DNA of 61,751 nucleotides, counting the filler, from Squatina squatina (lineage: Eukaryota): the NCBI GenBank assembly GCA_031763465.1. It is 4 parts of 4 records of this genome, joined end to end, with 100 filler letters (N's around TTAATTAATTAA, not from the genome) between each part and the next. Parts side by side here need not be neighbours in the genome. Positions count along the whole stretch, not along the records: positions 1 to 15,080 come from JARFOE010000189.1; positions 15,181 to 32,880 come from JARFOE010000058.1; positions 32,981 to 48,299 come from JARFOE010557049.1; positions 48,400 to 61,751 come from JARFOE010000016.1. One strand, 5' to 3'. The notes beneath the pieces are model-generated. The model made no database searches. It saw only the letters and a list, made by a program, of their open reading frames with translations, and had not been told where the DNA came from. Of the stretch, positions 1 through 61,751 are shown in pieces (the stretch's first letter is position 1; each line of letters begins with the position of its first letter). The position numbers and the translations under genes were made by a program.

Positions 1-90
1 CTCCACAGATGCTGCCTGACCTGCTGAGTATTTACACCATTTTCTGCTTTTAGTTCAGATTCCAGCATCTGCAGTATTTTGCTTTTGTAT
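1..90 (+). mobile_element. 3' tail of Penelope-derived, hammerhead-associated short repeat (ribozyme core would lie just upstream of the window)
   Basis: CTCCACAGATGCTGCCTGACCTGCTGAG...TCCAGCATCTGCAGTATTTTGCTTTTG matches the tails at 27490-27590, 43737-43830, 51758-51825 and 61592-61680. Confidence 0.8.
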
Positions 91-94
91 TTGT

Positions 95-895
95 GCCGAT
101 AGTGACGTTGCCTGCCTGGTGCCAGGGTTACGGATATCTCCTCACAGCTGGAGAATAATTTAGAGTGGGAGGGGGAGGATCTAGTTGTTGCGGTCCATGT
201 AGGAAGCAATTACATAGATAGAACTCGGAATGAGATTCTGCTGAGAGTATTTGAGGATCTAGGGTCAAAATTAAAAAGGAGAACCTCAAAAGTAGTCATT
301 TCTGGACTGTTACCTGAGCTAAGTGCAAATTGGCATAGGGACAAGCAGATCAGAGAGTTAACTGAGTGGCTCCAAGAGTGGTGTGATAGGAAGGGGTTTT
401 GATTTGTGGGGCACTGGCACCAGTATTGAAGAAAGAGGGAGCTGTTCCATTGGGCGGTCTCCACTTAAACTAGGCTGGGACCAGTATCCTGGCGAATCAA
501 ATAACTAGGGCTGTAGATGGGGCTTTAAACTAAAAGTGGGGGGAACTGGGGGAAGAGGTCAGGTGAAGGGAAATTTAGAAATCTAAAGAGAAAAGTCAAG
601 GCACTGGAGCAGTGTAGCGATTTGGGTAAAGATAAACAGGAAGTGACAGAGTTTAAAGGTAATTGTGCATCAGTGAATAAGATGAAAGCAGGGAACAATG
701 GTAAAAGGTTAAAACTAAAGGCTCTTTACCTGAATGCATGAAGCATTTGTAACAAGATAGATGAACTAGAGCACAAATGGAGATAAATGGGTACGACCTA
801 ATCGTCATTACAGAGACATGGTTGCAACGTAACCAGGGTTGGGGACAAAATATTCCAGGGTTCTTGGTGTTTCGTAAAGACGGGCAGACTGAAGC
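95..895 (+). mobile_element. Decayed CR1-clade LINE: ORF1 SGNH/esterase-like end and start of ORF2 AP endonuclease
   Basis: Translates to CLPGARVTDIS...VAVHVGSN...RTSKVVISGLLP, then LKALYLNA*SICNKIDEL and YDLIVITETWLQ; stops and frameshifts present. Confidence 0.85.
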
Positions 896-2234
896 NNNNN
901 NNNNNNNNNNNNNNNNNNNNNNNNNNNNNNNNNNNNNNNNNNNNNNNNNNNNNNNNNNNNNNNNNNNNNNNNNNNNNNNNNNNNNNNNNNNNNNNAAGGG
1001 CAGGAAAGGGGAAGGGGCAGGAAACTAGAAGACACAATTTAAAAAATGGTTTTGCCTCTCTATGCAACTTCAACAGTGATGACAGAATGTGCTCATTTTA
1101 AATATTTAAAATTCAACAAGAAAGGGGATCAAGGTTTTATTGAAAACATTTTTTGACATTCAATGCAGATTAAAAATATGAATCATAGTTTTTTAAAAGC
1201 TGCAGTCATTATTCTTTCAGTGGCTTGCACAATGGGGTAGAATTCTAATTAATCTTGTGATTGCTGGGTGAATTGCATTAAAGCTCCATTAAATACTGAT
1301 GCACAATTATTTTTCAGTTGAATGACTTTTCTTCTCCTCCTCCATCTGCCTCGCAGAGATAACCTCAAAAGCCCACCAGAGGCTTTGGTTTCTCTAATCC
1401 TCGGACTGAGTGCTGTAATCAATCCTTTCATTGCAGTCGGTGCAGAAGGAATAAACGAGCACCACTCCGGTGTGTTGAGACCTCACAGGGGTACATCACC
1501 ATCCCCATTAGGAAGGGGGAGTATTCATGTAGCCAAAAGCATCATCCCAGTACCTATCACTTAAAAGATATGTTTTAAAAAAAAACGCTCATTATTCTGC
1601 TAATTTAGAAAAAAATATAGTTTTATAATGCATTATTTAAATAAACAAAATAATAGCTTTTAAAAGATCATACATATCCACTTAAACAGGTAGGATTCCA
1701 GCACAGAAAGGACACCTAGTTATTGCCAGCTAAATATTATTACAGCACAAACATATGAATTTTGAGCAAGTAAACATTTAATAAAATGTGCATTTCTTGA
1801 ATGCTTAGGGATAGGATCATTAAAATTACATCCCACTCGATGGATTAGATGTTCAGCAGAGAAATAAATCGAGGGGTTGAGAAGGTAAGTTCCCTGTGGT
1901 ATTGTTCGCACTTTGGGATTGGCCAGGTGAAATCCAGTGGTCTCCTCAGATCCTTCGTATTGCTATGGTGCTATGCTCCGAGGTACTTGGAAAGGTTTGC
2001 AACAAGCAATGTAAAGTGGCATTTATCCTCCGTCACTCACCATATGCCCACCCCCATTCTGAAATCAATTTAAATTAAAATAGGATGTAAAATGATTGGC
2101 TTCCAGAAATGGAAACACAAAAGTAATACTTAAACTCTTGGATTTTTTTTGGCAGAAGGAAATTCTACCCTTGTCACCACTTAAATACTGATAATTCCCC
2201 AATCTTCTTTTGTTCTCCCCTCGTCTCCTGCAAG

Positions 2235-2362
2235 TGGGCTCCAAAGGTTAAATTAAGAGGAGAGATTACGCAGATTAAGGTTGCATTCCCCAGAATTTAG
2301 AAGGTTAAGACTGAAGTTTTCAAGATAGTAAGGGGAACAGATAGGATAGAGAGAAACTATTT
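2235..2362 (+). mobile_element. CR1 LINE 3' RT fragment
   Basis: GAGGAGAGATTACGCAGATTAAGGTTGCATTCCCCAGAATTTAGAAGGTTAAG resembles the EERL..LGL.SLEFRRLR motif seen in other CR1 copies here. Confidence 0.65.
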
Positions 2363-5971: not shown

Positions 5972-6755
5972 NNNNNNNNNNNNNNNNNNNNNNNNNNNNN
6001 NNNNNNNNNNNNNNNNNNNNNNNNNNNNNNNNNNNNNNNNNNNNNNNNNNNNNNNNNNNNNNNNNNNNNNNTAGGCTTGGTTTTAACAAGCGTAAGAAAT
6101 TTCAAGAAAACTTTGCAAAAATATCGCAAAGCTCAGTGCTGGGGATGGGCTTCCCAGCCTCGGCGTTGGATCTGACCAGAAGTTTCGATTGACAGATCGC
6201 AAATGCCGGTTATGCGGGCTTACGATGTACATACAGCCCCATAACCGGCTTTTGCGATGTCACCCCGGGTGCGTGGGAACGTCGTTCCCACCCGGGGAGA
6301 TCGCAATTTCAGGGCCCAGTGCAAGTCTTTTCTTCTCTCGGATGCACCTTCTCTCAGGCGGCCCCCACTGACTGACCTACCTGCCCGCCGGCCGGCCTGT
6401 CACCGCCGAAGCTCCGCGCACAATGGCCCCCTGTTGCCCTTGGTTACCGTCGCTAAGGAGCGCCGCCGCTCCCGGCATGCAGCGCCGAAGCGTCGCCAAG
6501 TGTCGCAAAGCTGGCGCACGGTCGGCGGCAAAAAGCCGTAAAGGGGAGCACCGCCGCGGGTGGGGAGGAGAAGAAGAAGAAATGGAGCTGGGGATCGAGT
6601 AAGCCAAGAAGGGAGAGAGAGAGAAAAAAAATTAGCGAGACAGATCGGAGCATTCATGTAGCGGGGAGAAAAGTAAAAGGTGCAGGCGGATCGTTTTGGC
6701 TTAAATAGAGAGTCCTCCTTCCTATTCCCCTCACCCCAGCACAACAGCGCGTACA

Positions 6756-7107
6756 ATGGACGAGAACATGGAGGAGGACGCCAGCTACCAGCAGCAGCTG
6801 ATGATGGACGATCACAACCACAACAACAACTGGGAGGCCAACGCGGACGCCTATCAGCAGCAGCAGCAGCACCACCACCATCACCACCACCACCATCATC
6901 ACCATCATCACAACCATCACCCCAGCCAGCCAGCTCTGCCCGAGCCGGGGGGGACGCCGCCAACACAGCCCGACCCCAAAGAGCTCCTCCAACGCCGCAT
7001 GTCCGTCAACGGGGGAGAGCGAGGGCCGGCAGCGCACCGGGAGCCCGAGCCCGAGCCCATGGCCAGTAAAGTAACCCTGAACATTAACAGCTCAGCCTCC
7101 AAGTTCT
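6756..7107 (+). CDS. CACUL1: CDK2-associated cullin domain protein 1, coding exon 1
   Basis: MDENMEEDASYQQQLMMDDHNHNNNWEA...VTLNINSSASKF matches mammalian MEESMEEE..YEAMMDDQNHNNWEA...TININTSTSKF; phase-1 donor T|GTAAGT at 7108. Confidence 0.95.
6855..6920 (+). repeat. (CAG)5(CAC/CAT)~14 coding trinucleotide repeat (poly-Gln/poly-His)
   Basis: Directly visible within CACUL1 exon 1. Confidence 0.95.
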
Positions 7108-7447
7108 GTAAGTCACGCAAGAGGGAACCGCCCCATCTCCCAAATTTGAGCGTTACGTGCGTCGACAAGTGATTGTTAAGCGAATAAGGATTTCATAGTT
7201 TTTACTTTTAGATGGGTGTGTAGATTTTAACGCTCTGATTTAATCTGTTGAAGACCTGGAATTTGCTTACTTTACCATGACAAATACCACCTGCATTCTT
7301 CAGTCTGCTCAGNNNNNNNNNNNNNNNNNNNNNNNNNNNNNNNNNNNNNNNNNNNNNNNNNNNNNNNNNNNNNNNNNNNNNNNNNNNNNNNNNNNNNNNN
7401 NNNNNNNNNNNNGTAAATTGTGTTTATATTTTTAAATTTCTGTTTAG

Positions 7448-12194: not shown

Positions 12195-12509
12195 GTAAAA
12201 TTTAGACTCCATGCTTCAAACCTACCATCGTAAATATGGCTGCTTATTTATTTACCTGAAGTTATTAGTTCACCCATCCAGCAAGACCCTCCAGTCACCC
12301 CTTCCTCCAGTCATGGTATCCAACTGCTTTTTAAAAAACTGATTTCCGGGCTTTCACTTGCACTCTGCACGGAATTGTATGTATTGAGCACTTTGTGTGA
12401 TGAAAAACTTGCTGGAATCGGTCCTAAATTTGTGTTTGAACTGTGCCTTTGTTCTATTCTCACAGTTTAGTGCTAGCGATTACTCCTAGGACTCTGCTCT
12501 AAACGTGAG

Positions 12510-12821
12510 CGTCAGATGTAGCTCAGTGGGTAGCACTATTGCCTCTAAGTCAGAAGGTTGTGGGTTCAAGTCCCACTCCAGAGACTGGAGCACAAAAGCC
12601 TAAGCTGACACTCCAGTGCAGGGCTGTGGGAGTGCTGCGTTCTGAGGTGTGCCGTCTTTCGGATGAGACGTTAAACCAAGGCCCGTCTGCTCTCTTAGGT
12701 GGACGTAAAAGACCCCATTGCACTATTTCAAAGAAGATCAGGGTAATTCTCCCCAGTGTCCTGGCCAATATTTATCCCTCAATCAACATCACAAAAACAG
12801 ATTGCCTGCTCATTATCACAT
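12510..12821 (+). mobile_element. DeuSINE (SacSINE1/AmnSINE1-like) with tRNA-derived head
   Basis: A box TAGCTCAGTGG, B box GGTTCAAGTCC, Deu-domain-like GCCGTCTTTCGGATGAGACGTTAAACC...GTCCTGGCCAATATTTATCCCTCAA. Confidence 0.85.
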
Positions 12822-13959: not shown

Positions 13960-14186
13960 CCATCTCCAACCACATATCTCACAATCCAAGTGCCTCCGAT
14001 TTGTTTCTGTATTGCCTATTGCACCATAACCTGGTCAAAGTCACCAATGACATCCTGTGTGACTACATTATGATGTGGTATCCATAACCTCACACAACCT
14101 TTGATAAGGTTGACCACTCTATCCTTCGCCACTGTGTCTCCTCCATGGGCCTCCTTCATAGTACTGCCCTCGCCCCATTTTGATCC
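13960..14186 (+). mobile_element. L2-clade LINE RT fragment
   Basis: CTGGTCAAAGTCACCAATGACATCCTGTGTGAC = LVKVTNDILCD, an L2 RT motif. Confidence 0.7.
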
Positions 14187-14286
14187 NNNNNNNNNNNNNN
14201 NNNNNNNNNNNNNNNNNNNNNNNNNNNNNNNNNNNNNNNNNNNNNNNNNNNNNNNNNNNNNNNNNNNNNNNNNNNNNNNNNNNNNN

Positions 14287-15023
14287 CGCGGGGCTGGGTC
14301 TACGGCCGGTTCATGTGCTACTTCGTCTTCCTGATGCAGCCCGTCACCGTGTTCGTGTCGGTCTTCACCCTGACGGTGATCGCCGTGGACCGCTACCACG
14401 CCACCGTGCACCCGCTCAAGAGGAGGCTCAGCATCCCCACCTGCGCCTACCTGCTGGCTGCCATCTGGCTGCTGGCCTGCCTGCTGGCCGCTCCGGCCCT
14501 GGTGCACACCTACTACGTGGAGTTCCACCACTTGACCATCTGCGAGGAGTTCTGGGTGGGGCTGGAGAAGCCGCGCCTGCTCTACGCCTACAGCACCCTG
14601 GTGGTCACCTACCTGCTGCCCTTCTCGGTCATCTCCCTGTCCTACCTGCGCATCTCGGTCAAGCTGAAGAACCGGGTGGTGCCCGGCCACTTGACCCGGG
14701 GCCAGGCCGAGTGGGAGCGGGCCAGGCGCAGGAAGACCTTCCGCCTGCTGGTGCTGGTGGTGGCCGTCTTCGGCCTCTGCTGGCTTCCCCTCCACCTCTT
14801 CAACGTGGTCAAGGACATCGACATCGACCTGATCGACAAGCAGTACTTCAACCTGATCCAGCTGCTGTGCCACTGGCTGGCCATGAGCTCCGCCTGCTAC
14901 AACGCCTTCATCTACGCCTGGCTCCACGACAGCTTCCGAGGGGAGCTCAAGAAGATGTTCACCTGGCGCAGCCAGAAAGTGGCTCCAACGGCGCACTGTG
15001 TCATGGCCAGCGTGGTTTTGTAA
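14287..15023 (+). CDS. PRLHR: Prolactin-releasing peptide receptor (class A GPCR); N-terminal third lost in gap
   Basis: [67 protein letters not shown] and C-terminal SVVL PDZ-type motif; intronless, high GC3; downstream of CACUL1 on the same strand as in mammals. Confidence 0.95.
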
Positions 15024-15080: not shown

Positions 15081-15180
15081 NNNNNNNNNNNNNNNNNNNN
15101 NNNNNNNNNNNNNNNNNNNNNNNNTTAATTAATTAANNNNNNNNNNNNNNNNNNNNNNNNNNNNNNNNNNNNNNNNNNNN
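15081..15180. other. Artificial scaffold linker (N44-TTAATTAATTAA-N44)
   Basis: Six-frame stop spacer centred in exactly 100 nt; identical at 32881 and 48300. Confidence 0.97.
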
Positions 15181-15490: not shown

Positions 15491-16349
15491 GAACCTTGTC
15501 TTTATGGATTGCTGCTGCACTTGCTTATGCTATTCACAGCAGGCTACCAAGGGAGATGGGCTACTGATTCTAATATATTTATGGAAATGACACAATCTAG
15601 AATTGTTTTTTTAAGCTAACATTGATTTTGTACTTAAGTTGTCCATTTACTCTGTTGTTTCATTGGTGGAAGTTGGAATTCCACTCCCTATGACAGCATG
15701 AGCATTTTAATGTTCTATCTGGAGTTTAACTAATTTGGTGAGAGGGAAAACCATATCGTTAGAACAAAGGGTCTCTAACCAGCATTTGATTTATCTTTTC
15801 TCTTTCAGATGCCAGTAGTTCTGCGTGTTTCTGGCATTTTCTGTCTTTATTTCAGGTTTTGCATTTTCATATTTTAATTTTTAATCTCATCAATAAATTA
15901 ATTCTTTCTTTACTGTTAGGCACAGAAGAGAAGGGCAGAGCCAACTCCAGAAACATCCGGACGAAAAGATTGGAAAAAAATGAAGAATTGAAGTTTCTTG
16001 CTCAAATGAAGACTGCATCTCAGTTAACACGATAGTTTCTTTTTGCTGCCTTTTCTCTCTTGTATATTCATTAGAAAAATAGTCAGATGATGCAGTATAA
16101 TAAATTCTACAGAATTTTAAATGCATTCGCAAGGTACATNNNNNNNNNNNNNNNNNNNNNNNNNNNNNNNNNNNNNNNNNNNNNNNNNNNNNNNNNNNNN
16201 NNNNNNNNNNNNNNNNNNNNNNNNNNNNNNNNNNNNNNNGGACCCACCACTGAATGCTCCTGCTGAACCCATGAAAAATTCCCCCCTAAGTGCTACTTCA
16301 CAGGAAGTGCATGCAAACAAAAGATGATTAAGTTATAGCTAGATTGGCT

Positions 16350-26098: not shown

Positions 26099-26754
26099 TT
26101 CTAACTCTTACTCTCTCTCGCTTTCAAATGCATCATTAAAACCTATCTTGCGTGACCCGATCTAAATTTCTTCACATTGTGCTTGGCGTCCACCGCTTGC
26201 CCTTGCAAATTGCACTGAGATGTTCTTTCTTGTGAGAAATGTCATACAAGTATAAATTGTTGCAGTGTTTCCATGTTCGTTTCCTGTTCTGCAGACTAGA
26301 AAGAGTAGGGTAGATGTTAACTGTTGAGTGGCTGACTGATGGAGTGCGCTGACTTCAGGCTTGTGCAACAGCAAGCGGCCCAGAGGCAACCTGGCCAGCA
26401 GCAAGAGGGCTACAGTGGTCCACATTAGTCTTGTACAGCCTGGAGGAGCAGGCCCACAGAAATAATTTTGTCGTTTTTTTAACCTCTTTGGTTGTACTGC
26501 TGGGTAAAACTGGGCAGAACATTCATGGCCAGCTTTCTCCCAAAATGGCAATCAGGGTCTTATGTGGGTTGTATTAAAAGGACCTACCACCTGAAACATG
26601 CAGGCACTTTGGCCATCCTGAGGTAGGCTCCTTTTAGGACAGCATTGACCGGCTTGGGACTTCGAACAGGGCAGTAAGATTTCCCTCGCAATTTTTTGGG
26701 ACGTTACTTACTGCCTTGGTTCAGCCCTTGGAATCCATGAAAATCTTCAGCAGG

Positions 26755-27178
26755 AAAAAGAACATCTGTAAATGCTGGGAAGTTGTAATTAAAACAAATT
26801 GTGAGACTACACGGTAAGGTCGGTCAGCAGCTTTAAAAAAACGGATGGTTAACATTTTGGGTGTAAGCAATTCAGCAGAATTAGAAATTATAAAATAAAA
26901 AAGAGTGAGAACAACAGGTGTAAGGAAAAGTTAATAATGTTGCCTTCTATCACACAGAGGTAGGTTTACTGTTTTTTTTGAAAGAGGTAAAAATTAATGA
27001 AAAATATACAAAGGACTTCTCAGTGAGGTAATCAAAAGGCAATAAAAGATATGAAAATAATTTATTTTCCAGTTCTGACAAAGGATTTATACCCACCATG
27101 TTAGTCAGTGCTTTTTCTCTTTTTAGATGGTAATGAATCTGTTATATATTTCCATCCTTCACTGTTTTTATTTAAAGG
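26755..27178. mobile_element. Old inverted pair of Penelope-derived hammerhead-associated repeats
   Basis: Minus-strand arm ~26755-26880 and plus-strand arm ~27068-27178 (CCAGTTCTGACAAAGG...ATGTTAGTC...CTGTTTTTATTT); heavily diverged. Confidence 0.55.
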
Positions 27179-27489
27179 AGTTCGCTTCTTATCTGAATGC
27201 ATATGTATTAAGTCATAATATGGTATCACTTTTGCCAAACAAAGTCATTGATCTTAACAAAGGTTTAATTTGATCAGAGTTAAAACTGCATTCATGTATT
27301 ACCTTAGGCATTGGATTTCATCGTAAATGGTATTAGATTAAATGGTTTTATGGTCATTTATGGCTGCCATTATGTTATCAATGTTACATATAGAGATAAG
27401 AATCAAAGTTTTAAAAAAAATCAATAATCTGTATAGAATTAGCCTTTAGCGTATGCATGTAGGAGAACAGAACAAGGCATTGTACGTTA

Positions 27490-27627
27490 GATACAAAAGC
27501 AAAATACTGCGGATGCTGGAAACTGAAATGAAAATAGAAAATTCTGGAAATACTCAGCAAGTCAGGCTGCATCTGTGGAGAGAGAAACAGAGTTAAGGTT
27601 TCAGGTTGATGACCCTTCGTCAGAACC
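27490..27627 (-). mobile_element. Short Penelope-derived element with hammerhead core (27591-27627)
   Basis: Reverse complement reads GGTT CTGACGA AGGGTCATCAACCT GAAA CCTT AACT followed by the family tail. Confidence 0.85.
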
Positions 27628-32880: not shown

Positions 32881-32980
32881 NNNNNNNNNNNNNNNNNNNN
32901 NNNNNNNNNNNNNNNNNNNNNNNNTTAATTAATTAANNNNNNNNNNNNNNNNNNNNNNNNNNNNNNNNNNNNNNNNNNNN
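32881..32980. other. Artificial scaffold linker
   Basis: N44-TTAATTAATTAA-N44. Confidence 0.97.
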
Positions 32981-41529: not shown

Positions 41530-42946
41530 ATGGGGGGACCAGTTATTCTACTGATTAAAGAGATTTACTATCCGATTCTAGCAGCCGTCGGTGTCCCCGG
41601 TGAGCCATTATATAACCTGTTTGCTGTTAATCGGTTTTACCTGTCGCCCTGTTCATAAAGCCTGTTTGAAAAGGTAATATCTTTCATTGATGTCAGCACA
41701 GCCGTTAGGAAACGAGTTCCTGAACCGTGTGTCTGCACTTCCCGTGTTACTCTTAATCTGATAACATTAAGGTAGTTAAACTGTTCTCTGAAGCTCCAAA
41801 TCCAGGATTTTAGCGGATTTCTGGACCATACTCTCACCCTGTGCGGAGTGAGCACTGCAGCAGCTCAGTAAAATGTGTGAGTGGGTTTCCCAAGTAATGG
41901 CTCCAATACTAATCCAGTTCTCACCCTGCCCCATGTTGATAATCACACACAATAATGTTACATTTTCTCAACAGTTATCTCCATATGTATATCAGTCAGA
42001 CATTGGATCATTATTTCACTCCTCTCTCTTTCTTACAGCAAATTTGATGACTATTGTGATTCTCTCCCGAGGAAACTGCGGCCTTTCCAAGTGTATCTCT
42101 GTCTACATGGTGGCCATGGCAACAGCAGATCTACTGGTCATGATCTTCAATGTAATGGTATATTATATTTTCAGTTATCACTTTCCACTTTCCTTCCTGT
42201 CCCACACTCCCGTGTGTAAGTTCATTCTATACATGACTACAGTCAACCTTGACTTGTCTGTTTGGTTCACCGTCTCCATCACATTTGACCGATTTGTCGC
42301 TCTCTGCTGTCAGAAGTTTAAAACAAAGTATTGCACCGAGAGAACTGCGGTCTCAGTTATAACAGCTTTCACGGTCTTGATCTTTTTAAAGGACATCCCT
42401 GTTTTGTTTGCAGTTGAACCTCAGCAAACAGTTAACGAGGTGCAGTGGGGCTGCGGGTTAAGTGCGGCATTTTTTTCCTCAGATGCAGGTGTAACTTACG
42501 TCTGGTTTCACAGTGCCTGGGTCGTTTGGCTTCCTTTTTCTGTTATTGCCTTGTTTAATTATTTGACAATCTGACGTATTTTAGTGGCCAATGGAGCCCG
42601 CAGAGGACTCCGGAGTCACAAGAGTCAAAATCAGTGTGATCCAGAGATGGAGACCCGAAGGAAATCCATCATTTTACTCTTCACTATATCGGGCAGTTTT
42701 ATATTGTTGTGGCTAACATATGCCGTGGGTTTGGTAACTACCATACTGGCAAACCCCATTTATTACCGAGGCGACCTCACAGACCCTGGATATATCGCCA
42801 CTGAAATCGGATCCATGCTGAAGTATTTGAGTTCCTGTCCGAACACGTGTATTTATGCAGCGACCCAGAGGAAGTTCAGAGAAGAGCTGAAGAATGTGCT
42901 GAAATCTCCCTGGACCCTGATTCTGAGTTTAGTGGAAAAATACTAA
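41530..42946 (+). pseudogene. GPR139/GPR142-like orphan class A GPCR (exon 1 41530-41599, exon 2 42039-42946) with a single in-frame TGA at 42572-42574
   Basis: Exon 1 MGGPVILLIKEIYYPILAAVGVP G|GTGAG; exon 2 TTACAG|CA ANLMTIVILSRGNCGLSKCISVYMVAMATADLL, TFDRFVA, RRKSIILLFTISGSF, NTCIYAATQRKFREEL; the two provided ORFs are in the same frame. Confidence 0.88.
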
Positions 42947-43736
42947 TGAAAAGAACCAAGTCAAAGGACCCCTTCCTTGTAACAAAAGTTGAATTTCAAC
43001 TCATTTTCCATGTAAAAATATCCTTCTTTCTGGTAATATAAACAATGGGAGAGTTCATGCGTAAACATTTCTTCCACCATGCGTTTGATGTCTGATTTAC
43101 ATCCGCTTTTCACACTTCTTTCACTTAGTAAACATAACCTATTCCTGCAAATTCAGCACATTTCAAGTTCAGGGACCAAAGATGAGATTCAGCAGTGAAG
43201 TCAGACAGGTGGGTAACAGAGGATTCCACCTCACACTGCAGGTACTGGGATCGGACATGCCACTTTAAAATCATCAATAAAGTTTAATTCAGTGCTGTAA
43301 CGATCAAAGGGGGTGTGATCGGCCATACGGGTAATTTTCATCGGAGCTCGGGTCTCTCGATCAGATATCATTCCTCATTGGCAATGTCATGGGATCAGTG
43401 TTAGAATGAAGGAAATTGTCTGAACTCAGTTCATCGACGTGACCTTTCACACCTTTTGTCACAGATACTGACTGAAAATCTCGATTGTCCACGTACTGGT
43501 TTCTCTCATTCAGCAAAAAGACGGAGTCTGCACTTGTGCGCTGTCGATAGAAGTAACATGAGTAATACTGATCATATTCTGTCAGTCAGTCTCTTAAACA
43601 AAAGATTAAATGAATGTAATAATGAATATTTAAGCATAACATTATTAACTAATACAGTTGATTCAAGTTATCAATTAAACAAATACAACCAGAAATTCCG
43701 ATGAAATCAACCTGATCTTCAGTATCCTGTACAACA

Positions 43737-45890
43737 GCAAAATATTGTGAATGCTGGAATGCGAAAGAAAAACAGAAAATGCTGCAAACACTCAGCAGGC
43801 CAGACAGCATCCGTGGAAAGCGAAATAGAGTTAACGTTTCAGGTCAGAGACCTTTCATCAGAACTGAATAAGTTAGGGATGTAACAGATTTTAAGTAGGT
43901 GCAGAGGCAGTAAAAGCGGGAGGGGAGGGAAGAACAAAGGGGACGATCTGTGATAGGGTGGAGGGCCGTAGTGATCAAATGTTGCAAGTGAGAATGTCAG
44001 AAAGATCAACAGATGGCGCCGGAAAACTAGCGGCGTGAATTATGGACTGAAATTTTTGAAGAGGATGTTGAGTCCGGAAGGCTGTAAAGCGCCTAATCGA
44101 AGGATGAGGGGCTGTTCTTCGAGCTTGCATTGAGCCTCGTTGGAACAGACCAGGAGACCGAGGACAGGCAGGTCAGATTGGGAGTGTAGCGGAGAATTAA
44201 AGTGACAGGCGACCGGAAGCTCGGGGTCACGCTTAGAGACTGAATGGAGGTGTTCTGCAAAACCGTCAGCCAGACTGCGTTTGCTGTCCCCAATGAAGAG
44301 GAGACCGCATCACCAGCAGTGAATAGAGTATAGTAAATTACATAAAGTACAAGAAAATCGCTGTATCACCTGGAAGGTTCGTTTCAGGCCCTGAATTGTG
44401 GGAAGGGAGGAGGTGAAGGGGAGGAGTTGCATCTCCTGCACTTGCACGGGAAGGAGCTGTGGGAAGGGGAGAGGGTGATGTGGGTGATTGAAGAGGGGAC
44501 CAGGTGTTGTGGGGGAATGGTCGCTTTGGAATGACGAAAGAGGAAGGGAGTGGAAGATGTGTTGGTGGTGGGATCATACTGGAGTGGCAGAAATGGCAGA
44601 GGATGATCTCTTGATTGATATGGTTATTGGGGTGGAAAGTGTGGATTACTGGTTATGGGAGGCAGGCGAATGGGTGAGAGCAGAGATGCGGCAAATTGGA
44701 TAGACAGGGTCGAAGGTCATGTCAACCAAGGTAGAGGGGAATCCTCGGTTGAGGAAAAAGTAAGATATATTGAACGCGTTCGTATGGAATGTAACAATGT
44801 CAGAACAGATGAGATGGAGATGGAGGAACTGCGAGAATGGAATTGAGCCCTTACAGGAAGCAGGGTGGGAGGAACTGTAGTCCAGGTAACAGTGGGAGTG
44901 AGCCGGCTTACAATAGATGTTTGTGGTTCACCTATCCCCTGTAATGGAGACAGATAATTCGACGAAGAGAAGGGAAGAGTCAGAGATTGTTCATGTGAAG
45001 GTGAGTGCAGGGTGGAAATCTGAAGCAAAGTGAATTAAATTTTCCAATTCTGGATGAGACCAGGAAACAGCACCGATACAGTCATCAATGTTGCAGAAAA
45101 AGAGGTTATGGACGTGGCCTGCTAGGAGTCGTACAAAGAATGTTCCACAAGTCCCAGGAAAAGGCAGCCATCGCTAGGACCCAATAGGGTTACCTTCGAA
45201 ATACCTTTAATTTGGAATAAGTGAGTAGAATCAAAGAAGAAGTTGTTCAATGTGAAAACTAGTTCTGCCAGGCGGAGGAGGGTGGTGGTTGATGGAGATT
45301 ATTGGGCCTCTGTTCAAGGAAGGAGCAGAGCGCCGTCAGGCCATCTTGGTGAGGGATGGAAGTTTAGAAGGATCGGATTTCCATGGTGAAAAGGAGATGG
45401 TTGGGTCCAGGAAACTGGAAACTGTTAAACTGGCGGAGGCATCAGAACAGTCCCGAATGTAGGTGGGAAGAGACGGGGCAAGAGGAGAAAACATAGAGTC
45501 GAGATAGGAAGAAATCAATTCCATGGGCCAAGGAAAGACTGAAACAATGGGTCTTTCATTTTAGATGTTGGGAAGGAGCAAGAAGCGGGTTGTGCAGGGT
45601 TGGGGGAGTATGAGGTTGACCGCCGTAGTAGGAAGATATTAAGTGGAGATGAGATCACTGTCAGCCTTGGAAACAATGGAGTAGTATTTGGTAGTGGCGT
45701 CATGGTCCAAGGGAAGGTAGGAGGAGGCATCAGAGAGTTGGCATTCGGTCTGCGCATTGCAGAGGTTGATTCGCCAAACAACAACAGCACATCCTTGTCA
45801 GTAGGTTTAATGACAATGTTGGGGTTGGATCTGGGAGCACAGAGTGCTGCGAGTTCAGAGGGAGGGAGGTTGGAGTGAGTCAGGGGAGCA
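43737..45890 (-). mobile_element. Penelope-like retroelement (RT + GIY-YIG endonuclease), decayed, with 3' pLTR
   Basis: Minus strand: NIVIKPTDK, ELISSYLDSMFSPL..SLPTYIRD, NIDDCIG (YIDD), and NLLYSIHC..CGLLFIGDSKRSLADGFAEHLHSV..RDPELPVACHFNS. Confidence 0.92.
43829..43865 (-). ncRNA. Minimal type I hammerhead ribozyme (intact core)
   Basis: AGUU CUGAUGA A AGGUC-UCU-GACCU GAAA CG UU AACU: stem I AGUU/AACU, 5-bp stem II, loopless palindromic stem III (ACGU), GUU cleavage triplet. Confidence 0.85.
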
Positions 45891-46349
45891 GAGAAATTGT
45901 CAGTCCATATTAATTTATCTCACACTGTATGTGTTCCTGGATTCCAGATTCCCATTTTATGTGAACACTGTAATTACATATTCTCACACAAGCCTCAATG
46001 ATTCCCATGTGTTCTAATTTGAATAATTATCCAACGGCATTTGCTGGGCCTTACTTTTTACCTGCTACATTTATTGGATAATTAAAACATATTTTTCTTC
46101 ATTCTTAATATTTATCCCGACATAGAATCCACGGTGCCTCTTATTATGTTCTAACTGGATGAATCCATTTTAGTTCCACATCCACCAGCTGTTTGTTAAC
46201 CACTTTCTGCTTTTGTACTCCAGTGCTGGGATCTCCCAGACCTGCTCCATTGTGGAGTCCCACACACACAGTCGACGGATTATGGGACAACTCCTCAGCT
46301 TTCATTTCATTGACATGAACAGAAGATCGCTAGCAATGCAAGTGGCAGA

Positions 46350-46520: not shown

Positions 46521-46529
46521 CAACAACAT

Positions 46530-46972
46530 CAGCAGTGGCTCTGCAGTAACACTCTCGCTCCTGAATCAGACAGTGGTGGGTTCATGTACTTCTCCAGAGA
46601 CTGAATAAATAATCTGTGCTGGTACTTCAATGCCGTACTGAGTGCACCGCACTGTCTTTCAGATCAGTTGTTAAACTGAGGCCCCGTCAGGTCTCACAGG
46701 TGGAAATAAAATATCCTGCAACAATATTTTAAAGAGAAGGGGAGTTCTCCACGATATCCGGGCCAATGTTCATCCCTCAACCAACATCACTAAAACAGAT
46801 TAGCTGGAAATTATCACAGTGCTTTTTTTGGGAGCGTGCTGTGAACAATTTGGCTGTCGCACTTTCTACATTGCAATCGTGTCTGCTCTTCAAAAATAAT
46901 TCATACACTGTAAATTTCTTTGTGAGGTCCTGGAGTCATGAACGAAGCTGCACACAAGCAAGTCTTTCTTTA
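46530..46972 (+). mobile_element. DeuSINE, near full length
   Basis: tRNA-like head (GTGGCTC...GGGTTCATGTAC), Deu domain and tail ending GCAAGTCTTTCTT; homologous to 12510-12821. Confidence 0.8.
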
Positions 46973-47059: not shown

Positions 47060-48299
47060 AATAAGTAGTGGTAATGGAGGACACGGTATAAATCAGGAAC
47101 AAAGAAGTGCATGTACCAAAGGTAACACAGTAATCATTGGGAACTTTAATCAACATATAGACTGGGCAAACAAGATTAGCACTAGTGCTGTGGAGGGCGA
47201 ATTCCTGGAATGTATCGGAGATAGTTTTCTAGATCAGTATGTTGAGGAACCAATGAGGGAACAGGCTACTTTAGATCTTGTACTGTGCAATGGGAAGGGG
47301 TTAATCAATAACCTTGTTGTAAAGGGGCCCTTGGGGCTGAGCGACCATAATATGATAGAATTCTTCATTAATTTTGAAAGTGATGTAGTTCATTCCGAAA
47401 CTAAGGTCTTAAATCTAAACAAAGAAAACTATGAAGGTACGACGCATGAGTTGGCTGCGGCTGATTGGGAAACTAGACTCAAGTGTATGACGGTAGAAAA
47501 ACAATGGCTAAAATTTAAAGAAATAATACATAATTTGTAGCAAATATGTATTCCTTTAAGACACGGAAAACCAAAAAGAAAACTGGCCCAACTGTGGCTA
47601 GCATGAAAAGTTAAAGATAATGTTAAAACAAAGGAAGAGGCTTTTAAAGTTGCCAGAAAAAGCAGCAAGCCAGAGGACTGGGAGCATGTTAAAATTCAAC
47701 AAAGGAGGGAAATGAAAGTGATAAAGAAAGGGGAAATAGAACATGAGAGTAAACTAGTAAGAAACATAACAATGTACTGCAAAAGTTTTATGGGTATGTA
47801 AAAAGGAAAAGACTAGCGAAGGCAGATGTGGGTCCTTTACAGACAGAGATGGGAGAACTAATAATGGAGAATAAGGATATGGCAGGGAAGTCAAACAAAT
47901 ACCTAGTGTCTGTCTTCAAGGAGGAAAACACAAAAAAATTCCCAGAAATACTAAAGAACCAAGGATCTGGCGAGAATCATAAACTGGAAGAAAACCTGGA
48001 AGATGCAGGTTTAATAAACAATCTCAGAATAAAGGATCCCCTCGGAAGTAGTGATCATAACATGGTAGACTTTAGCATTCAATTTGAAAGTGAGGAACGT
48101 GAATCAGAAACAGCTGTGTTCAACTGAAATAAGGGGAATTATGAAGGACTGGGCAAATAGATCAGCAGGTAAGATAGTAGAGAAGCAATGGCAGACATTC
48201 AAGGAGATAATTCATGACTCTTAGCAAAAATACATCGCAGAGAGGAGGAAAGATTCGAAAGGAGGGACGAAACAACCATGGCTAACCAGGGAAGTAAGG
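47060..48299 (+). mobile_element. CR1 LINE ORF2 endonuclease region; two juxtaposed fragments
   Basis: FLDQYVEEPMREQATLDLVLCN...PLGLSDHNMIEF, and again at ~48000 INNLRIKDPLGSSDHNMVDF. Confidence 0.9.
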
Positions 48300-48399
48300 N
48301 NNNNNNNNNNNNNNNNNNNNNNNNNNNNNNNNNNNNNNNNNNNTTAATTAATTAANNNNNNNNNNNNNNNNNNNNNNNNNNNNNNNNNNNNNNNNNNNN
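48300..48399. other. Artificial scaffold linker
   Basis: N44-TTAATTAATTAA-N44. Confidence 0.97.
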
Positions 48400-51401: not shown

Positions 51402-51599
51402 CTTGATTTCTGCTGGTTTGTAGTAACGCCGTGAGTGGTCCTCCAATCCTGTTCTATATCCATCTCTTAAGAAGCGTTTCAATCCATGTTTTCCCTTTAG
51501 CTTGCTAACAACTTTCTCAAAAGTTTGTTCAAACAAGGCATCATCATCCACTGCAAAAGCTGGGTAACTTATACATGGCAGTAGAGCAGCATCTGTATT
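51402..51599 (-). CDS. PHKB: PHKB internal exon (198 bp)
   Basis: TTTTTCCAG| [66 protein letters not shown] |GTACTT. Confidence 0.96.
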
Positions 51600-51662
51600 C
51601 TGGAAAAATATTGCAGAATATGATTAATCATCTTGCTGTGATTGCCTAGCAGCAAAATATTC

Positions 51663-51825
51663 TACTAAAAATGCTGGAAAAACTCAGCAGGTCAGGCAGC
51701 ATCTGTGGAGAGAGAAAAAGTGTTCTGACGAAGGGTCATGGACCTGAAAAGTTAACTCTGCTGAGTTTTTCCAGCATTTTTTGTTTATATTTCAGATTCC
51801 AGCATCCGCAGTATTTTGCTTTTGT
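51663..51825. mobile_element. Fold-back Penelope-derived mini-element with hammerhead core (51721-51757, + strand) and 12-bp flanking direct repeat
   Basis: 24-bp perfect inverted repeat 51667-51690/51758-51781; core TGTT CTGACGA AGGGTCATGGACCT GAAA AGTT AACT; AGCAAAATATTC at 51651-51662 and 51826-51837. Confidence 0.85.
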
Positions 51826-52056
51826 AGCAAAATATTCGATATGATTCAAACTTGCACACAATATATTAAATAATGGTCATAAATTTACATATAATTATTC
51901 ATTTGAATGACAAACCATGGTTCTACAAGATTACACTCTGGCCGTTATATTGAAATNNNNNNNNNNNNNNNNNNNNNNNNNNNNNNNNNNNNNNNNNNNN
52001 NNNNNNNNNNNNNNNNNNNNNNNNNNNNNNNNNNNNNNNNNNNNNNNNNNNNNNNN

Positions 52057-53182: not shown

Positions 53183-53199
53183 CTATTTAAAAATAAATT

Positions 53200-53865
53200 A
53201 ATTGAGTAACTGAGCACTTGGACAAGTATGAGTTGATCAAAGAGTATCAGAATGAATTTGAAGAACAGTTCATGTCTGACTAATCCAGTTGAATTTTTTG
53301 AAGAGGTTATTAACATGGTGGATAAGGGAATGTCTGTAATGGGACTTCCAGAAGGCATTTGTTTAGGTTCCACACAAGAGATTATTAGCAAAAACGAAAG
53401 CGCAAGGAACTGGGAGGTAATCTTGTGACAGAGGCTGATAATTGGTTGAGAGTTAGCCAACAGAAAAGTAGGGATGAAGGGAACCTACTCTGATTGGCAG
53501 GTTGTGACAGGTGATATTGCCCAGGGATCTGTACTGGGGCCTCAGTTTTTCAACATATATATAAATAATTTGAATAAAGAAATAGAGTTATATNNNNNNN
53601 NNNNNNNNNNNNNNNNNNNNNNNNNNNNNNNNNNNNNNNNNNNNNNNNNNNNNNNNNNNNNNNNNNNNNNNNNNNNNNNNNNNNNNNNNNNNNAGGGAGT
53701 TAGATGTGGCCCTTATGGCTAAAGGGATCAGGGGGTATGGAGAGAAAGCAGGTACAGGGTACTGAGTTGACTGATCAGTCATGATCATATTGAATGGCGG
53801 TGTAGGCTCGAAGGGCCGAATGGCCTAATTCTGCACCTATTTTCTATGTTTCTATATTTCTATAT
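53200..53865 (+). mobile_element. CR1 RT fragment and 3' tail (gapped)
   Basis: SDWQVVTGDIAQGSVLGPQFFNIYINNL; tail GGCCGAATGGCCTAATTCTGCACCT(ATTTTCT/ATGTTTCT)n. Confidence 0.85.
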
Positions 53866-54395
53866 AAATGTAAGTTCTTTCTTCTAGGCAAAACGTTTTA
53901 TGAGAAAGGAGGAAAGAAATGAAGAAAACAATTATTCTGCTTACTGTCTTTTTTCCTCAACACATTTTCCATCAGCTGAGAAAGCAATGGGCAACACCAT
54001 CACAAACTTTGCCAAGATTACCACTAATTCCATTTTGCTTGACAATCTCATGATACGGCAAATTGAATATCTGTATATTGTTTAGATGAGGTGCTCTGGT
54101 GCAAAAATTGTGAAAGAGACATCTTAAGTGCAATATGAGTAATGTTACCTTGGGGAAAAGAACTGGTAAGAACATGGTTAAAATTGCAATTTTCTTAAGA
54201 TAGGAGCAAGAAAGTTCATTCACAAGCTCTAATCTCCTGGATAATACAAGCCTACAAAAGGTTCTTTTAAAAGTGATATGAATTTTTATTTTTATAATTA
54301 AACATACTTGTTTCCGTCTGTTCATAGTCATTACTGTAGGTAAAAGCAATCCTAAATGAAAGGTCAAAATGTATTTCTAGACATTAGTCTTTTAC

Positions 54396-54495
54396 CTTTT
54401 CAGCTTGGCGCATATAGCAGTAGAGAATTCCTCGCATGCATTTTACAGCGGAGTATTCCAGTTCATGAGTCCTTCCCTTGTCATCGTCAATGCGC
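54396..54495 (-). CDS. PHKB: PHKB internal exon (100 bp)
   Basis: TCTAG| [33 protein letters not shown] |GTAAAA. Confidence 0.96.
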
Positions 54496-54659
54496 CTAGA
54501 CAAGGGAGATAAGCCGTGAAAATTTATCAAGATAAAAATCAAGTACTTTTAGCAATATGCCCAGTCCCATCATGTCGAAATTAAAATTTGAAGTTATAAA
54601 TAGTAATATTAGTCTAAAATAGTGATGCAAATCAATACATTCTGAACAATTTAATGTAA

Positions 54660-55105
54660 AACCTGGGATGGTAGGGATGATGTACGAAGAGAGATTGGGT
54701 AGATTAGGCTTATATTCGCTCGGGTTTAGAAGAATGAGAGGGGATCTCATTGAAGGCTTATATTCGCTCGAGTTTATAAGAATGAGAGGGGATCTCATTG
54801 AAACTTACAAAATTCTAACAGGACTGGACAGACTAGATGCAGGAAGGATGTTCCNNNNNNNNNNNNNNNNNNNNNNNNNNNNNNNNNNNNNNNNNNNNNN
54901 NNNNNNNNNNNNNNNNNNNNNNNNNNNNNNNNNNNNNNNNNNNNNNNNNNNNNNAAGGAATGGTTAAAATGAAGCCAAGGAAGATACAGGGCTATAGGGA
55001 GAGAGTGTGAGAGTGGGATTAGTTTTGGATTGCTTTAACAAAGAACTGGCACACATACGATGGGCCAAATGGGCTCCTTCTATACTGTAAACACCTATGG
55101 TTCTG
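54660..55105 (+). mobile_element. CR1 3' fragment with an internal 48-bp tandem duplication
   Basis: YEERLGRLGLYSLGFRRMRGDLIE-GLYSLEFIRMRGDLIETYKIL. Confidence 0.85.
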
Positions 55106-59789: not shown

Positions 59790-60198
59790 TCATCAGATAT
59801 AAGAGCAGAGAGGTTGAACTGTATAAAATACTAGATAGGCCACAGCTAGAGTACTGCATATAGTTCTGGTCAACATATTACAAGAAAGATATGATTGCAC
59901 GAGAAGGTACAGAGGAGATTTACGAGGATGTTGCCAGGACTGGAGCATTGAGAAAAGAGTGGATAGGCTGGGGTTGTTTTCTTTGGAACAGCGGAGGCTG
60001 AGGGGCAATTTAATTGAGGTGTATAAAATTGTGCGGGGCATAGATAGAGTGGATAGGAAGGACCTATTTCCCATAGCAGAGAGGTTAATAACCAGGGGGC
60101 ATCGATTTAAAGTATTTGGAAGAAGGGCTAGAGGGGAGTTGAGGAGAAACCTTTTCACCCAGAGGGTGGTGGGGGTCTGGAACTCGCTGCCTGAAAGG
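59790..60198 (+). mobile_element. CR1 LINE 3' portion
   Basis: DRLGLFSLEQRRLRGNLIEVYKIVRGIDRVDR...FTQRVVGVWNSLPE. Confidence 0.92.
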
Positions 60199-60944
60199 NN
60201 NNNNNNNNNNNNNNNNNNNNNNNNNNNNNNNNNNNNNNNNNNNNNNNNNNNNNNNNNNNNNNNNNNNNNNNNNNNNNNNNNNNNNNNNNNNNNNNNNNAT
60301 GGCGTTATAAGGTTGGACCTCGGGCTCCTTATTGGGCAAGGTGGAGAAAGCTTTGCTTCGCTTCTAACTATGCTATATCTGCCCTGGGGTGTTTGCTGAC
60401 ACTGGGACCCTGAAATTGAGCAGAGTTATATCCCACATTAACATTACTCACCTTAATGAGCACAAAATTCAATTTAAAAAAAAAAAACATTTTTTTAAAT
60501 CCAAGCAACATTGTGTAACTCCGTGAGATGTTAGGTCAACCTTTTTGCATAGGTTTGTTGAAGTGAATTGCAATATGGATGATGATTTTTCAGAGTTCAA
60601 TCTTCCGTCCATTTGAATAATTGTGACACAATTTCAATCGGATTGTAGGTATCTATTTCATCTTCATATTCAGTGTTTTTTGTGAAATCCATTATTCCCT
60701 AATCAAACGTGTCTAAACCTCATTAGACTTCTAAATCAGAGCTGATAAGTGTGTTATCCACTTAGAAACTTTCTATTGAAATGTATTCAGAGAACACTAC
60801 AAAGCTGATATCAATTAAAATTAAATTCAAACAAATTTCTTGATAAGGAATGGCAGGAAATGTGGACATTAACTTGTACCATCGCCACTTGTAATAAAAG
60901 TGCAGTTACAATTATTATCCATATGCAAATATAGTCCCAATTAC

Positions 60945-61390
60945 AATGGGTCGATTAGATTCACTAGAGTTTAGAAGAATGAGAGGGGACCTCATTGAAA
61001 CTGAGAGGGTACTAGGGTCGAGAGCCTTCAATTATGAGGAAAGGTTACAGAATTTGGATTTTTCATTCGAATAAAGAAAGTTAAGAGACGATCTGGTAGA
61101 GGTGTTTGAAATAATTAAGAGTTATGATGGGTAAGTTGTGAAAATCTATTCCTACTAGTCAATACCTCTGGAAAATACATTTTAAGAATAATGGGGAGAG
61201 ATATTTTAACTAAAATGATTTTTAGGATAGGGATTTTCTTACCAGAAACAGTGGAGGAAGCAGAATCCTAAATAGCTTTTAAAAGTTAAGTGGATAAATA
61301 TTTGAAAAAAAGTTAACCAGATTTGGACAAGTTTATCAGCTCTTTCAGAGAGCCAGCGTAGGAATGATGAGTTGTAAAATTCTATAATTT
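60945..61390 (+). mobile_element. Two stacked decayed CR1 3' fragments
   Basis: SLEFRRMRGDLIET at ~60960 followed by an older NYEERLQNL...KLRDDLVEVFEIIK copy. Confidence 0.7.
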
Positions 61391-61591
61391 TGTGGCAACC
61401 TTTTTATAGCTTCAATCTTGTAAATTATGCTCAAAGTTCTAGAGTTTGCCCACTTCTGTTGTTGAACTATTTTTGTATGATTTATTTGTATTTTGGCGAA
61501 TGAGTTTGCATGGAAGCAGAATACCTTATCTACCTGCGGAATGGTCTTCCTCATTCTTTGATCATATCCAAGACTGTCTCAGTTCTATCTC

Positions 61592-61751
61592 AAGCAAAAT
61601 ACTGCAGATGCTGGAAATCTGCGATTAAAAACAGAAAATGCTAGAACTACTCAGCAGGTAAGGCAGTATCTGGGGAGAGGGAAATCATTAACGTTTTAGG
61701 TCGATGACCTTTCATCAAAACTGGAAAAGGTTAGAGATGTAACAGGTTTTA
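61592..61751 (-). mobile_element. Penelope pLTR-like copy with mutated hammerhead core (61687-61722)
   Basis: Reverse complement AGTT TTGATGA AAGGTCATCGACCT AAAA CGTT AATG; flanks match 43737-43895; runs off the window end. Confidence 0.85.

Follow-up and report, generated by a model that had tools for sequence, protein, structure and literature searches.

Hammerhead-bearing units in Squatina squatina DNA: probable cut-short insertions of a Neptune-type Penelope-like element

Copies of the unit and the element that carries one of them

We analysed a stretch of 61,751 nucleotides of Squatina squatina DNA (assembly GCA_031763465.1), hereafter the window, made of four pieces with filler separators at 15081-15180, 32881-32980 and 48300-48399. 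It holds a unit of about 135 bases in eight decayed, scattered homologous copies (c1 to c8), present in all four pieces, and the decayed open reading frame (ORF) of a Penelope-like element (PLE). The features are the following.

1..89, plus strand: c1, young; tail only, the 5' part lost at the scaffold start
15752..15880, plus strand: c2, old, with 59-70% identity to the other copies; core destroyed
26754..26886, minus strand: c3, old; core destroyed; head-to-head with c4 at a spacing of 181 bp
27058..27175, plus strand: c4, the oldest; retains 8-15 nt of the upstream pyrimidine-CAG
27492..27626, minus strand: c5, young solo unit; its first base is the initial G of helix I; one change at 16.2
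43730..43864, minus strand: c6, the unit as 3' terminus (putative pLTR part) of the PLE
43830..43864, minus strand: hammerhead of c6, the only fully canonical minimal type I hammerhead found by a descriptor scan of the window
43865..44042, minus strand: 3' UTR of the PLE; its final ~13 nt hold a branch-like motif, a short pyrimidine run and a CAG whose G is the first base of helix I
44043..45901, minus strand: decayed, 5'-truncated ORF of a putative Neptune-type PLE, with RT, Cys-rich linker and GIY-YIG endonuclease; several stops and frameshifts
51651..51662, plus strand: left copy of a 12-bp target-site duplication around c7 (right copy 51826-51837; p=0.001 against 1000 random flank pairs)
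51668..51724, minus strand: inverted arm of c7, the middle of the unit; abuts the forward arm head-to-head, the two sharing 3 nt
51722..51826, plus strand: forward arm of c7, with the hammerhead (one change at 15.2), a ~30-nt internal deletion and the tail
61590..61751, minus strand: c8, young; two core changes; goes on for 31 nt of PLE 3' UTR, where the scaffold ends

The initial annotation had placed the unit at eight positions in all four pieces, and a homologous copy indeed stands at each. With a profile built from four copies, c7 scored 77.9 bits, c2 (15753-15858) 21.7 and c3 (26766-26883) 19.6; controls reached at most 10.5 (30 local shuffles) and 5.7 (reversed window). The oldest copy, c4, reached only 2.7 under this model, and 19.0 (27067-27175) under a seven-copy model from which it had been left out, against a best score of 9.5 in 50 shuffles. 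The HMM scan of the whole window gave no ninth copy above shuffle scores; weak matches at 27969-28050, 26569-26618 and 51578-51597 fell inside the shuffle range and were not counted. The density is eight copies per 58,601 non-N bases of the window, and three of them lie inside 750 bp (chance 0.025).

The ORF next to c6, read from 45901 to 44046, aligned by tblastn to residues ~184-813 of full-length RT and GIY-YIG proteins (E down to 1e-83), and phmmer returned 1894 matches at E<=0.001. Over ~630 aa, the tblastn alignments to proteins with RVT_1 and GIY-YIG domains follow the order of a single ORF, from the RT to a C-terminal GIY-YIG endonuclease. Skates, rays and sharks supply the top named relatives (Leucoraja, Hypanus, Heptranchias, Stegostoma, Chiloscyllium). 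None of the four decayed ORF fragments matched Pfam, and the endonuclease fragment, unmatched in a word-indexed protein search, was picked up by phmmer. The linker reads CKCRRC near 44445 in the window translation and CxxxxCxxC in the relatives; a CX2-5CxxC linker between RT and endonuclease marks Neptune and Nematis (PMC8557442). The motif and the best matches, taken without a tree, point to Neptune, the linker motif being one that Nematis has as well.

This is the sole coding copy in the window, truncated at its 5' end by ~185 codons, and c6 alone is attached to Penelope coding sequence, as the initial annotation had it. In addition, c8 reaches the PLE 3' UTR over the 31 nt left before the scaffold end (p=0.001). 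The c6 hammerhead begins 180 nt past the ORF stop. No full-length or partial-tandem copy with two pLTRs was found in the window, and the unit is taken as a putative pLTR from its position and by analogy. A splice role may be inferred for the motif at the end of the 3' UTR.

We also considered the tail as an ORF start. An ATG lies 81 nt from the 3' end and is followed by a stop-free frame in c5 and c6; c1 has a stop, and the ATG is absent in c8. Comparison with the first 120 aa of nine long relatives gave nothing meaningful, and a weak test found no translated unit inside longer proteins, so the idea is unsupported. By eye, the C-terminal peptide of zebra shark protein P0151 resembles an in-frame hammerhead, to which BLAST gave no score. 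Three exact 21-mer matches in bacterial or archaeal genomes, in contigs of 67-68% GC, were set aside as chance, their homology being limited to 23-34 model positions.

Hammerhead motif and ends of the copies

A hammerhead core followed by a conserved tail had been ascribed to every copy. Three of the eight (c5, c6, c7) pass a minimal-hammerhead descriptor, where 0.07 would be expected from 100 shuffles; c2 to c4 and c8 are altered, and c1 has no core because the scaffold start falls after it. The palindromic helix III (15.2-16.2) is kept in c6 only, c5 and c7 passing except for the palindrome. In c6, cleavage is predicted between 43833 and 43832, with a helix III that could form only as a dimer. 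Among the seven copies with a visible core, four are broken: c8 by two changes, and c2, c3 and c4. Rfam gave no match at gathering score over the whole window, and no hammerhead around c6 at E<=10. Single-strand folds were not more stable than shuffles (z-scores -0.6 to +0.5; -0.09 and +0.46 for the two full units), and covariation in helices I-II did not exceed shuffles, 373 of 500 of which scored as high. The absent covariation and the four broken cores fit neutral decay.

At the 3' end, the 16-mer that had been described as the conserved tail is exact in only three of the eight copies (at 71, at 27510 on the minus strand and at 51808). The conserved end itself reaches 3 nt further, to GTA, in c1, c5, c6 and c7, and lies at a common base in four of the five young copies, 124 nt from the start of helix II. 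Homology of c4 fades ~30 nt short of this usual end.

The 5' extents differ, reaching 2.2 kb, at least 31 nt, ~8-15 nt, 0 and 0 nt upstream of helix I, with c4 and c8 extending into the PLE 3' UTR. Comparing 5' breakpoints with the predicted cleavage site had been proposed as a check. In the window, the copies keep the catalytic core 5' of that site and none starts cleanly there; c5 and c7, the two young short copies whose 5' junction can be seen, start instead at the identical G bordering helix I. If truncation points were exponentially distributed with means of 100-1000 nt, two ends would agree to within 3 nt with a probability of 0.003-0.034, a post hoc figure for two copies under an assumed model. 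In c6 and c8 the same G closes the acceptor-like series of branch motif, pyrimidines and CAG, a type of motif that occurs in the window at 0.27 per kb per strand. No homology was seen upstream of about the helix I edge in c2, and extension into the 3' UTR was not significant for c2, c3 or c5; c3 aligns with the 3' UTR end to end, yet with p=0.58. Between the short copies and the 2.2-kb one, lengths of a few hundred nt were not seen in the window.

Where they overlap, the arms of c7 agree at 26 of 27 columns. Of six testable copies, only c7 showed a target duplication; none was found for c5. Three of the four informative sites group c5 and c7 against c6 and c8, one of them a CpG and one poorly aligned, and the grouping is not significant. 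No copy has a same-strand neighbour within 9 kb, nearby copies being on opposite strands. c3 and c4 may be a single inverted insertion; their spacer showed no shared homology (p=0.28), and no duplication was found.

Origin of the short copies

Taken together, these results make it probable that the unit represents the 3'-most segment of a Neptune-type PLE and that the short copies are 5'-truncated insertions made by its RT and endonuclease. The initial annotation had offered truncated Penelope insertions as one of two readings, and this one is borne out by the PLE terminus in the window, the fixed 3' end, the varied 5' extents, and the inverted arm and duplication of c7. By analogy with Poseidon of the anole (PMC11167929), the PLE protein would nick AT-rich DNA, cDNA would begin at a fixed site inside the RNA, ~100 nt 3' of the ribozyme, giving the fixed 3' end, and synthesis would usually end early, leaving short copies. 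The template was likely uncleaved RNA, with the ribozyme a passenger, because the core 5' of the cleavage site is retained. The inserted copies would be inert afterwards, since a lone minimal hammerhead needs a partner for helix III and same-strand neighbours are lacking at close range. Several observations sit less well with truncated insertions: the start base shared by c5 and c7 (post hoc, two copies), the upstream limit of c2 near that base, the lack of intermediate lengths, the non-significant grouping of c5 with c7, the single target duplication, and the absence of an element with two pLTRs from the window.

The shared start base is what a fixed-end by-product of the PLE would leave, that is, a unit-length class copied from PLE RNA, initiated internally at the tail and ended by run-off or stalling at the helix I edge. 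Its 5' end might be set by a spliced or pLTR-initiated RNA end, or by the ribozyme fold, and the copies would look like SINEs with no independent lineage. The G shared by c5 and c7, which in c6 and c8 ends the branch motif, pyrimidines and CAG, favours this account; so do an intron of the D. virilis Penelope that ends at the 5' end of helix I (PMC4209133) and the internal RT initiation demonstrated for an anole PLE (PMC11167929). Nevertheless, only two copies are concerned, and the c7 junction may have been steered by 3 nt of helix I that are complementary to the inverted arm. Moreover, c4, c6 and c8 retain the acceptor-like sequence, hence are unspliced, no common upstream exon was seen in c5 and c7, and the branch motif lies 10-11 nt from the AG, a short spacing for a typical intron. 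We consider such a by-product unlikely. The broader proposition, a unit-length class with both ends fixed (3' by an internal RT start, 5' at the acceptor or helix I edge) at ~100 copies per Mb in a cartilaginous-fish Neptune, is slightly less doubtful, and still improbable; it covers both a strong-stop-like by-product and a SINE-like lineage.

Even less probable is an independent ribozyme-SINE, a short self-transcribed master that comes from a pLTR and is moved in trans by the PLE protein. The apparent density is high, c5 and c7 have their common 5' end and weak grouping, pLTRs suffice for trans mobilisation in Adineta (PMC3846280), and Chlamydomonas has non-autonomous PLE derivatives (PMC8557442). 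However, the unit is wholly PLE-derived, without a unique head, and identity between short and PLE-attached copies is 79-89%, a range equal to that among all young copies. In the five young copies, a scan with the Pol III A and B box consensus motifs found neither box, the best sites having 3 and 2 mismatches; the SINE head at 12509, taken as a control, matched both boxes perfectly. As for a small-RNA-derived head, ARAGORN predicted no gene and Rfam gave no match at gathering score in the window. A non-LTR retrozyme, in which tandem hammerhead repeats release monomers that circularise and reinsert, seems to us the most remote of these accounts. The type I hammerhead is there, and a preprint (bioRxiv 10.64898/2026.07.22.740005) derives animal retrozymes from PLE pLTRs and reports them in one chondrichthyan (mean family length 363 bp). 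Against it, Tandem Repeats Finder found no tandem units at the loci in the window, neighbours being opposite-strand or more than 9 kb off; the 135-nt unit is shorter than the 150-450 bp of retrozymes (PMC7229834), the folds lack stable self-pairing, and the ends are neither circularly permuted nor at the cleavage site. The retrozyme-like system or ribozyme-SINE of the initial annotation thus finds no tandem units, canonical helix III, stable fold, Pol III boxes or cleavage-site start in its favour.

The same annotation had expected very many intronic hammerheads in this genome. This claim extrapolates from four scaffolds with gaps; the majority of motifs are broken, and none of the copies was placed in an intron. 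Indeed, Pfam matched none of 112 ORFs (at least 62 and 55 aa in pieces 2 and 4), so no host exon was placed near c2 to c5, c7 or c8. A high copy density is suggested, of use for repeat annotation and little beyond, and the family may already stand in Repbase or Dfam. The PLE replication cycle and the role of the ribozyme remain open (PMC8557442, PMC11167929). If 5' ends peaked at helix I, a very large set would make initiation and stop sites countable, and the use of cleaved versus uncleaved template too. A class with both ends fixed, if true, would preserve across the genome a natural record of the points at which PLE reverse transcription begins and ends, and would rank among the larger sets of vertebrate genomic hammerheads. 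In addition, acceptor-like motifs in the unit could cause exonisation, hence a strand bias in introns.

Relation to known hammerhead-bearing elements

Metazoan non-LTR retrozymes (PMC7229834; bioRxiv 10.64898/2026.07.22.740005) are likewise short, non-coding, low-GC kin of PLE pLTRs with a type I hammerhead. They are tandem (150-450 bp), mostly have canonical ribozymes and yield circular RNAs, whereas the present copies appear, from their sequence, monomeric, linear, 3'-fixed and mostly catalytically broken. In Poseidon of Anolis carolinensis (Frangieh et al. 2024, PMC11167929), the hammerhead lies ~110-125 nt upstream of a fixed insertion end, as here, and the main RT start is at 111-118 nt, compared with our 124 nt. 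Poseidon insertions come from uncleaved RNA, and hammerhead mutants had no effect on insertion. Poseidon belongs to a different clade, and its ORF begins at helix II, whereas no ORF start is supported in the present unit. Within the Neptune clade (Craig et al. 2021, PMC8557442), the linker motif is common to Nematis, and full-length or partial-tandem copies have no counterpart here. The structure of c7 fits the head-to-head inverted pLTRs described for PLEs with duplications of 8-10 bp (PMC3846280), ours being 12 bp.

There is also a likeness with the dispersed solo minimal hammerheads described in 2014 (PMC4209133), mostly single motifs ascribed to truncated PLEs. They share the type I minimal core, C-G-U-U after GAAA, a 3-4 bp helix I, one additional base ahead of helix II and a U-rich 5' flank; the c6 hammerhead follows the pattern of their Fig. 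S3, their opposite-strand pairs lie 100-700 bp apart, a range that includes c3 and c4, and a Drosophila intron ends at helix I. That survey counted ~4,000 motifs per genome in the coelacanth and ~9,000 in Xenopus. The density here would exceed these, if the window is representative, at 51 descriptor-passing motifs per Mb (extrapolated from the window; 95% interval 11-150). Cartilaginous fish are absent from its Table S1 and Fig. S3, and we found no specific report of hammerheads in sharks or skates in the literature. Hammerhead tails of cut-short PLEs are a pattern known since 2014, to which the present copies add the cartilaginous fish as a lineage.

The parent element and its terminal fragments

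The repeat makes up the terminal 3′ portion of a Neptune-type Penelope-like element (PLE). This conclusion follows from c6, one of the eight copies (c1-c8), which lies at 43730-43864 (-) downstream of a decayed reading frame:

45901-44046 (-): PLE ORF, interrupted by several stops and frameshifts, ~185 N-terminal codons missing

This ORF aligns to residues ~184-813 of full-length proteins with RT and GIY-YIG domains (best shark protein alignments, E 1e-83) and contains the Cys-rich linker described as a mark of Neptune and Nematis elements (PMC8557442). The unit starts 180 nt past the ORF stop, and the element ends with it at 43730. Skate, stingray and sharks supplied the top named relatives of the protein. 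Across the 150 phmmer hits, no other stretch of the window emerged as PLE coding sequence; the one match elsewhere traced to the N-terminal region, host-like in character, of a single fusion protein. The initial annotation saw a single copy joined to Penelope coding sequence; this holds for c6, but c8 also runs 31 nt into the PLE 3′ UTR, as far as the scaffold end (p=0.001).

Two further observations concern the parent element. At its 5′ junction, 45894-45909 is a 16-nt inverted copy (14/16, reached by 0/300 random 16-mers) of its own ORF-stop region, 44041-44056, possibly a template switch during integration. In addition, the RefSeq models P0001, P0002, P0004 and P0005 (skate, stingray, sevengill shark) terminate in this PLE's endonuclease domain, P0001 fusing it to a DUF4518 N-terminus and others bearing host-like names; they may represent exonisation or misannotation.

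A first HMM, built from c1, c5, c6 and c8, scored c7 at 77.9 bits, c2 at 21.7, c3 at 19.6 and c4 at 2.7 (maximum of 30 local shuffles, 10.5), and a second, built from the seven copies other than c4, gave c4 19.0 bits (maximum of 50 shuffles, 9.5). Because these scores exceed the shuffle maxima, for c4 with the seven-copy HMM, all eight copies are genuine, as first proposed; neither HMM found a ninth above shuffle scores in the whole window. The five young copies are 79-89% identical to each other; for the three old ones, identity is 59-72%. Describing each copy as a hammerhead core plus conserved tail was nevertheless too generous: c5, c6 and c7 match the minimal-hammerhead descriptor (chance expectation 0.07), but only 3/8 copies have the exact 16-mer tail and only c6 the palindromic positions required for dimeric helix III. 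The c8 core carries two changes, those of c2-c4 are destroyed, and c1 starts downstream of the core. Rfam gave no match at gathering score in the whole window and no hammerhead match at E<=10 around c6; a relaxed own descriptor was likewise used in PMC4209133. Helix covariation was not above shuffles, no copy has a same-strand neighbour within 9 kb in the window, and cleavage was not seen for the monomeric isolated minimal hammerheads reported in PMC4209133. On these grounds the dispersed copies would most likely be inert. Overall, this is a genuine family of fragments from the PLE terminus, most of them defunct as ribozymes.

Insertion structures and template

The 3′ end is identical to the base in c1, c5, c6 and c7 and ~4 nt shorter in c8, and the 5′ extents vary: c6 reaches 2.2 kb upstream, c4 retains 8-15 nt of 3′ UTR (anchored p=0.007), the scaffold start cuts c1, and c2 and c3 are too old for a 5′-end call. 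In c7, the forward arm is preceded by an inverted one (51668-51724), the two meeting head-to-head and overlapping by 3 nt; they are identical in 26/27 shared columns and are bracketed by a 12-bp duplication (51651-51662 and 51826-51837; p=0.001). No target duplication was found in the other five of the six testable copies. A unit that forms the PLE end, with a fixed 3′ end, variable 5′ extents and the c7 inversion and duplication, supports 5′-truncated Penelope insertion, one of the two origins originally offered, as the likely source of the short copies.

The c7 duplication (51651-51662) opens with 9 nt that match, in reverse complement, the 3′ tail of the element itself, a hint that target and template paired during insertion. 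The head-to-head copies c3 and c4, separated by 181 bp, may derive from a single old insertion. Of the eight copies, three fall inside 900 bp (26754-27626; chance ~0.025); this cluster may reflect a compound insertion or a preference for existing copies.

The sequence itself shows where the unit lies, a 3′ end that is fixed, 5′ extents that vary, an inversion accompanied by a duplication, and decay. For anole Poseidon, PMC11167929 describes a PLE protein that nicks AT-rich DNA, cDNA synthesis that begins within the RNA, 111-118 nt beyond where helix II starts, normal insertion by ribozyme mutants, and uncleaved RNA as the main substrate. By analogy, the PLE protein here would nick AT-rich DNA and cDNA synthesis would begin at an internal RNA site. 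The predicted cleavage site lies 103 nt from the 3′ end, and each of the seven copies whose 5′ part is visible continues ~30 nt upstream of it; their template was likely uncleaved RNA for this reason. The c7 inverted arm, ending 0-7 nt from that site, is the one ambiguous case.

The shared 5′ end of two short copies

Copies c5 (27492-27626, -) and c7 share their first base, the G opening helix I, an agreement with a probability of 0.003-0.034 under simple truncation models, post hoc and with two copies. A fixed 5′ end at helix I for the short copies is doubtful, and somewhat less probable still is that they are a fixed-end PLE by-product, arising at the helix I edge through splicing of the template or a favoured stopping point. 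In c6 and c8 that G ends a branch-motif, pyrimidine and CAG sequence, and PMC4209133 places an intron end at helix I in D. virilis Penelope, so either route is possible; copies of intermediate length were absent from the window. However, only two copies are concerned, and helix I complementarity may have guided the joining at the c7 junction. The common end would also suit an independent non-autonomous ribozyme-SINE derived from the PLE terminal repeat (pLTR), the other origin first offered, which we consider very improbable. Copies c5 and c7 group against c6 and c8 at 3/4 informative sites, too few to mean much, and none of the five young copies contains the Pol III A and B box motifs, while the SINE head at 12509, our positive control, matches both exactly; this speaks against a Pol III SINE. 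We retain truncated PLE insertion as the likely reading.

A second acceptor-like site lies inside the unit (43810-43830, -; 27572-27592, -): its branch motif overlaps the position of hammerhead cleavage and leads into 14-16 nt of pyrimidines and CAG, with ATG coming next in c5. Judged by these motifs, it could cause exonisation or mark a PLE 5′ UTR intron.

Other features of the window
12509-12820 (+): tRNA-type SINE-like repeat, exact A and B boxes
46546-46818: second copy of this repeat
27644-28135: ~490-bp MITE-like element with terminal inverted repeats of 47 nt (85%); it begins 17 nt from the c5 5′ end
14184-15023 (+): rhodopsin-family GPCR frame
41852-42946 (+): rhodopsin-family GPCR frame, in-frame stop near 42572
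36771-37331, 47061-48127, 53721-54853, 59839-61002: repeated fragments, by translation presumably CR1/L2-type LINE ORF2
31982-32259: 36-bp minisatellite, ~8 copies
6705-7172 (+): His/Gln-rich first-exon-like ORF, no Pfam match, which we take to resemble CACUL1

Density and known systems

Besides the spacers (15081-15180, 32881-32980, 48300-48399), the window holds many 10- and 100-N gaps, and its four pieces presumably represent scaffolds from a draft assembly that is fragmented. The density is 137 copies per Mb (95% interval 59-269), from eight in 58,601 non-N bases, and 51 per Mb (11-150) for motifs that pass the descriptor, in a non-random sample of four scaffolds where c3 and c4 are perhaps one event and 2/8 copies lie at scaffold ends, repeats being common break points in short-read assemblies. 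A Pfam search with 112 ORFs of pieces 2 and 4 (>=62 and >=55 aa) found no host exon around c2-c5, c7 or c8, and none of the eight copies was placed in an intron.

The initial label of a retrozyme-like system is not supported at these loci. Active animal retrozymes are described as two or more successive units whose hammerheads are complete (bioRxiv 10.64898/2026.07.22.740005), in tandem units of 150-450 bp (PMC7229834), whereas our loci hold single 135-nt units, no tandems, and a fold no better than shuffles. The c7 structure resembles the head-to-head inverted pLTRs of rotifer Penelope elements (PMC3846280); the duplication is 12 bp here and 8-10 bp there. Helix II and the 3′ end are 124 nt apart, against 111-118 nt in anole Poseidon (PMC11167929).

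Dispersed hammerheads from truncated PLEs are an already known pattern: according to PMC4209133, PLE pLTRs carry minimal hammerheads, which occur for the most part as dispersed single motifs 'probably related to truncated PLEs', alongside opposite-strand pairs like c3 and c4. Its Table S1 and Fig. S3 contain no cartilaginous fish that we could find, and our search returned no literature on PLE hammerheads of sharks or skates; one chondrichthyan is among the retrozyme-positive genomes of the 2026 preprint, and Penelope appears in the repeat list of the whale shark paper. Minimal hammerheads number ~4,000 in coelacanth and ~9,000 in Xenopus (PMC4209133), and up to 120,000 in axolotl according to a section heading of PMC7229834. 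If the window is representative, the count in Squatina squatina would exceed those of coelacanth and Xenopus.
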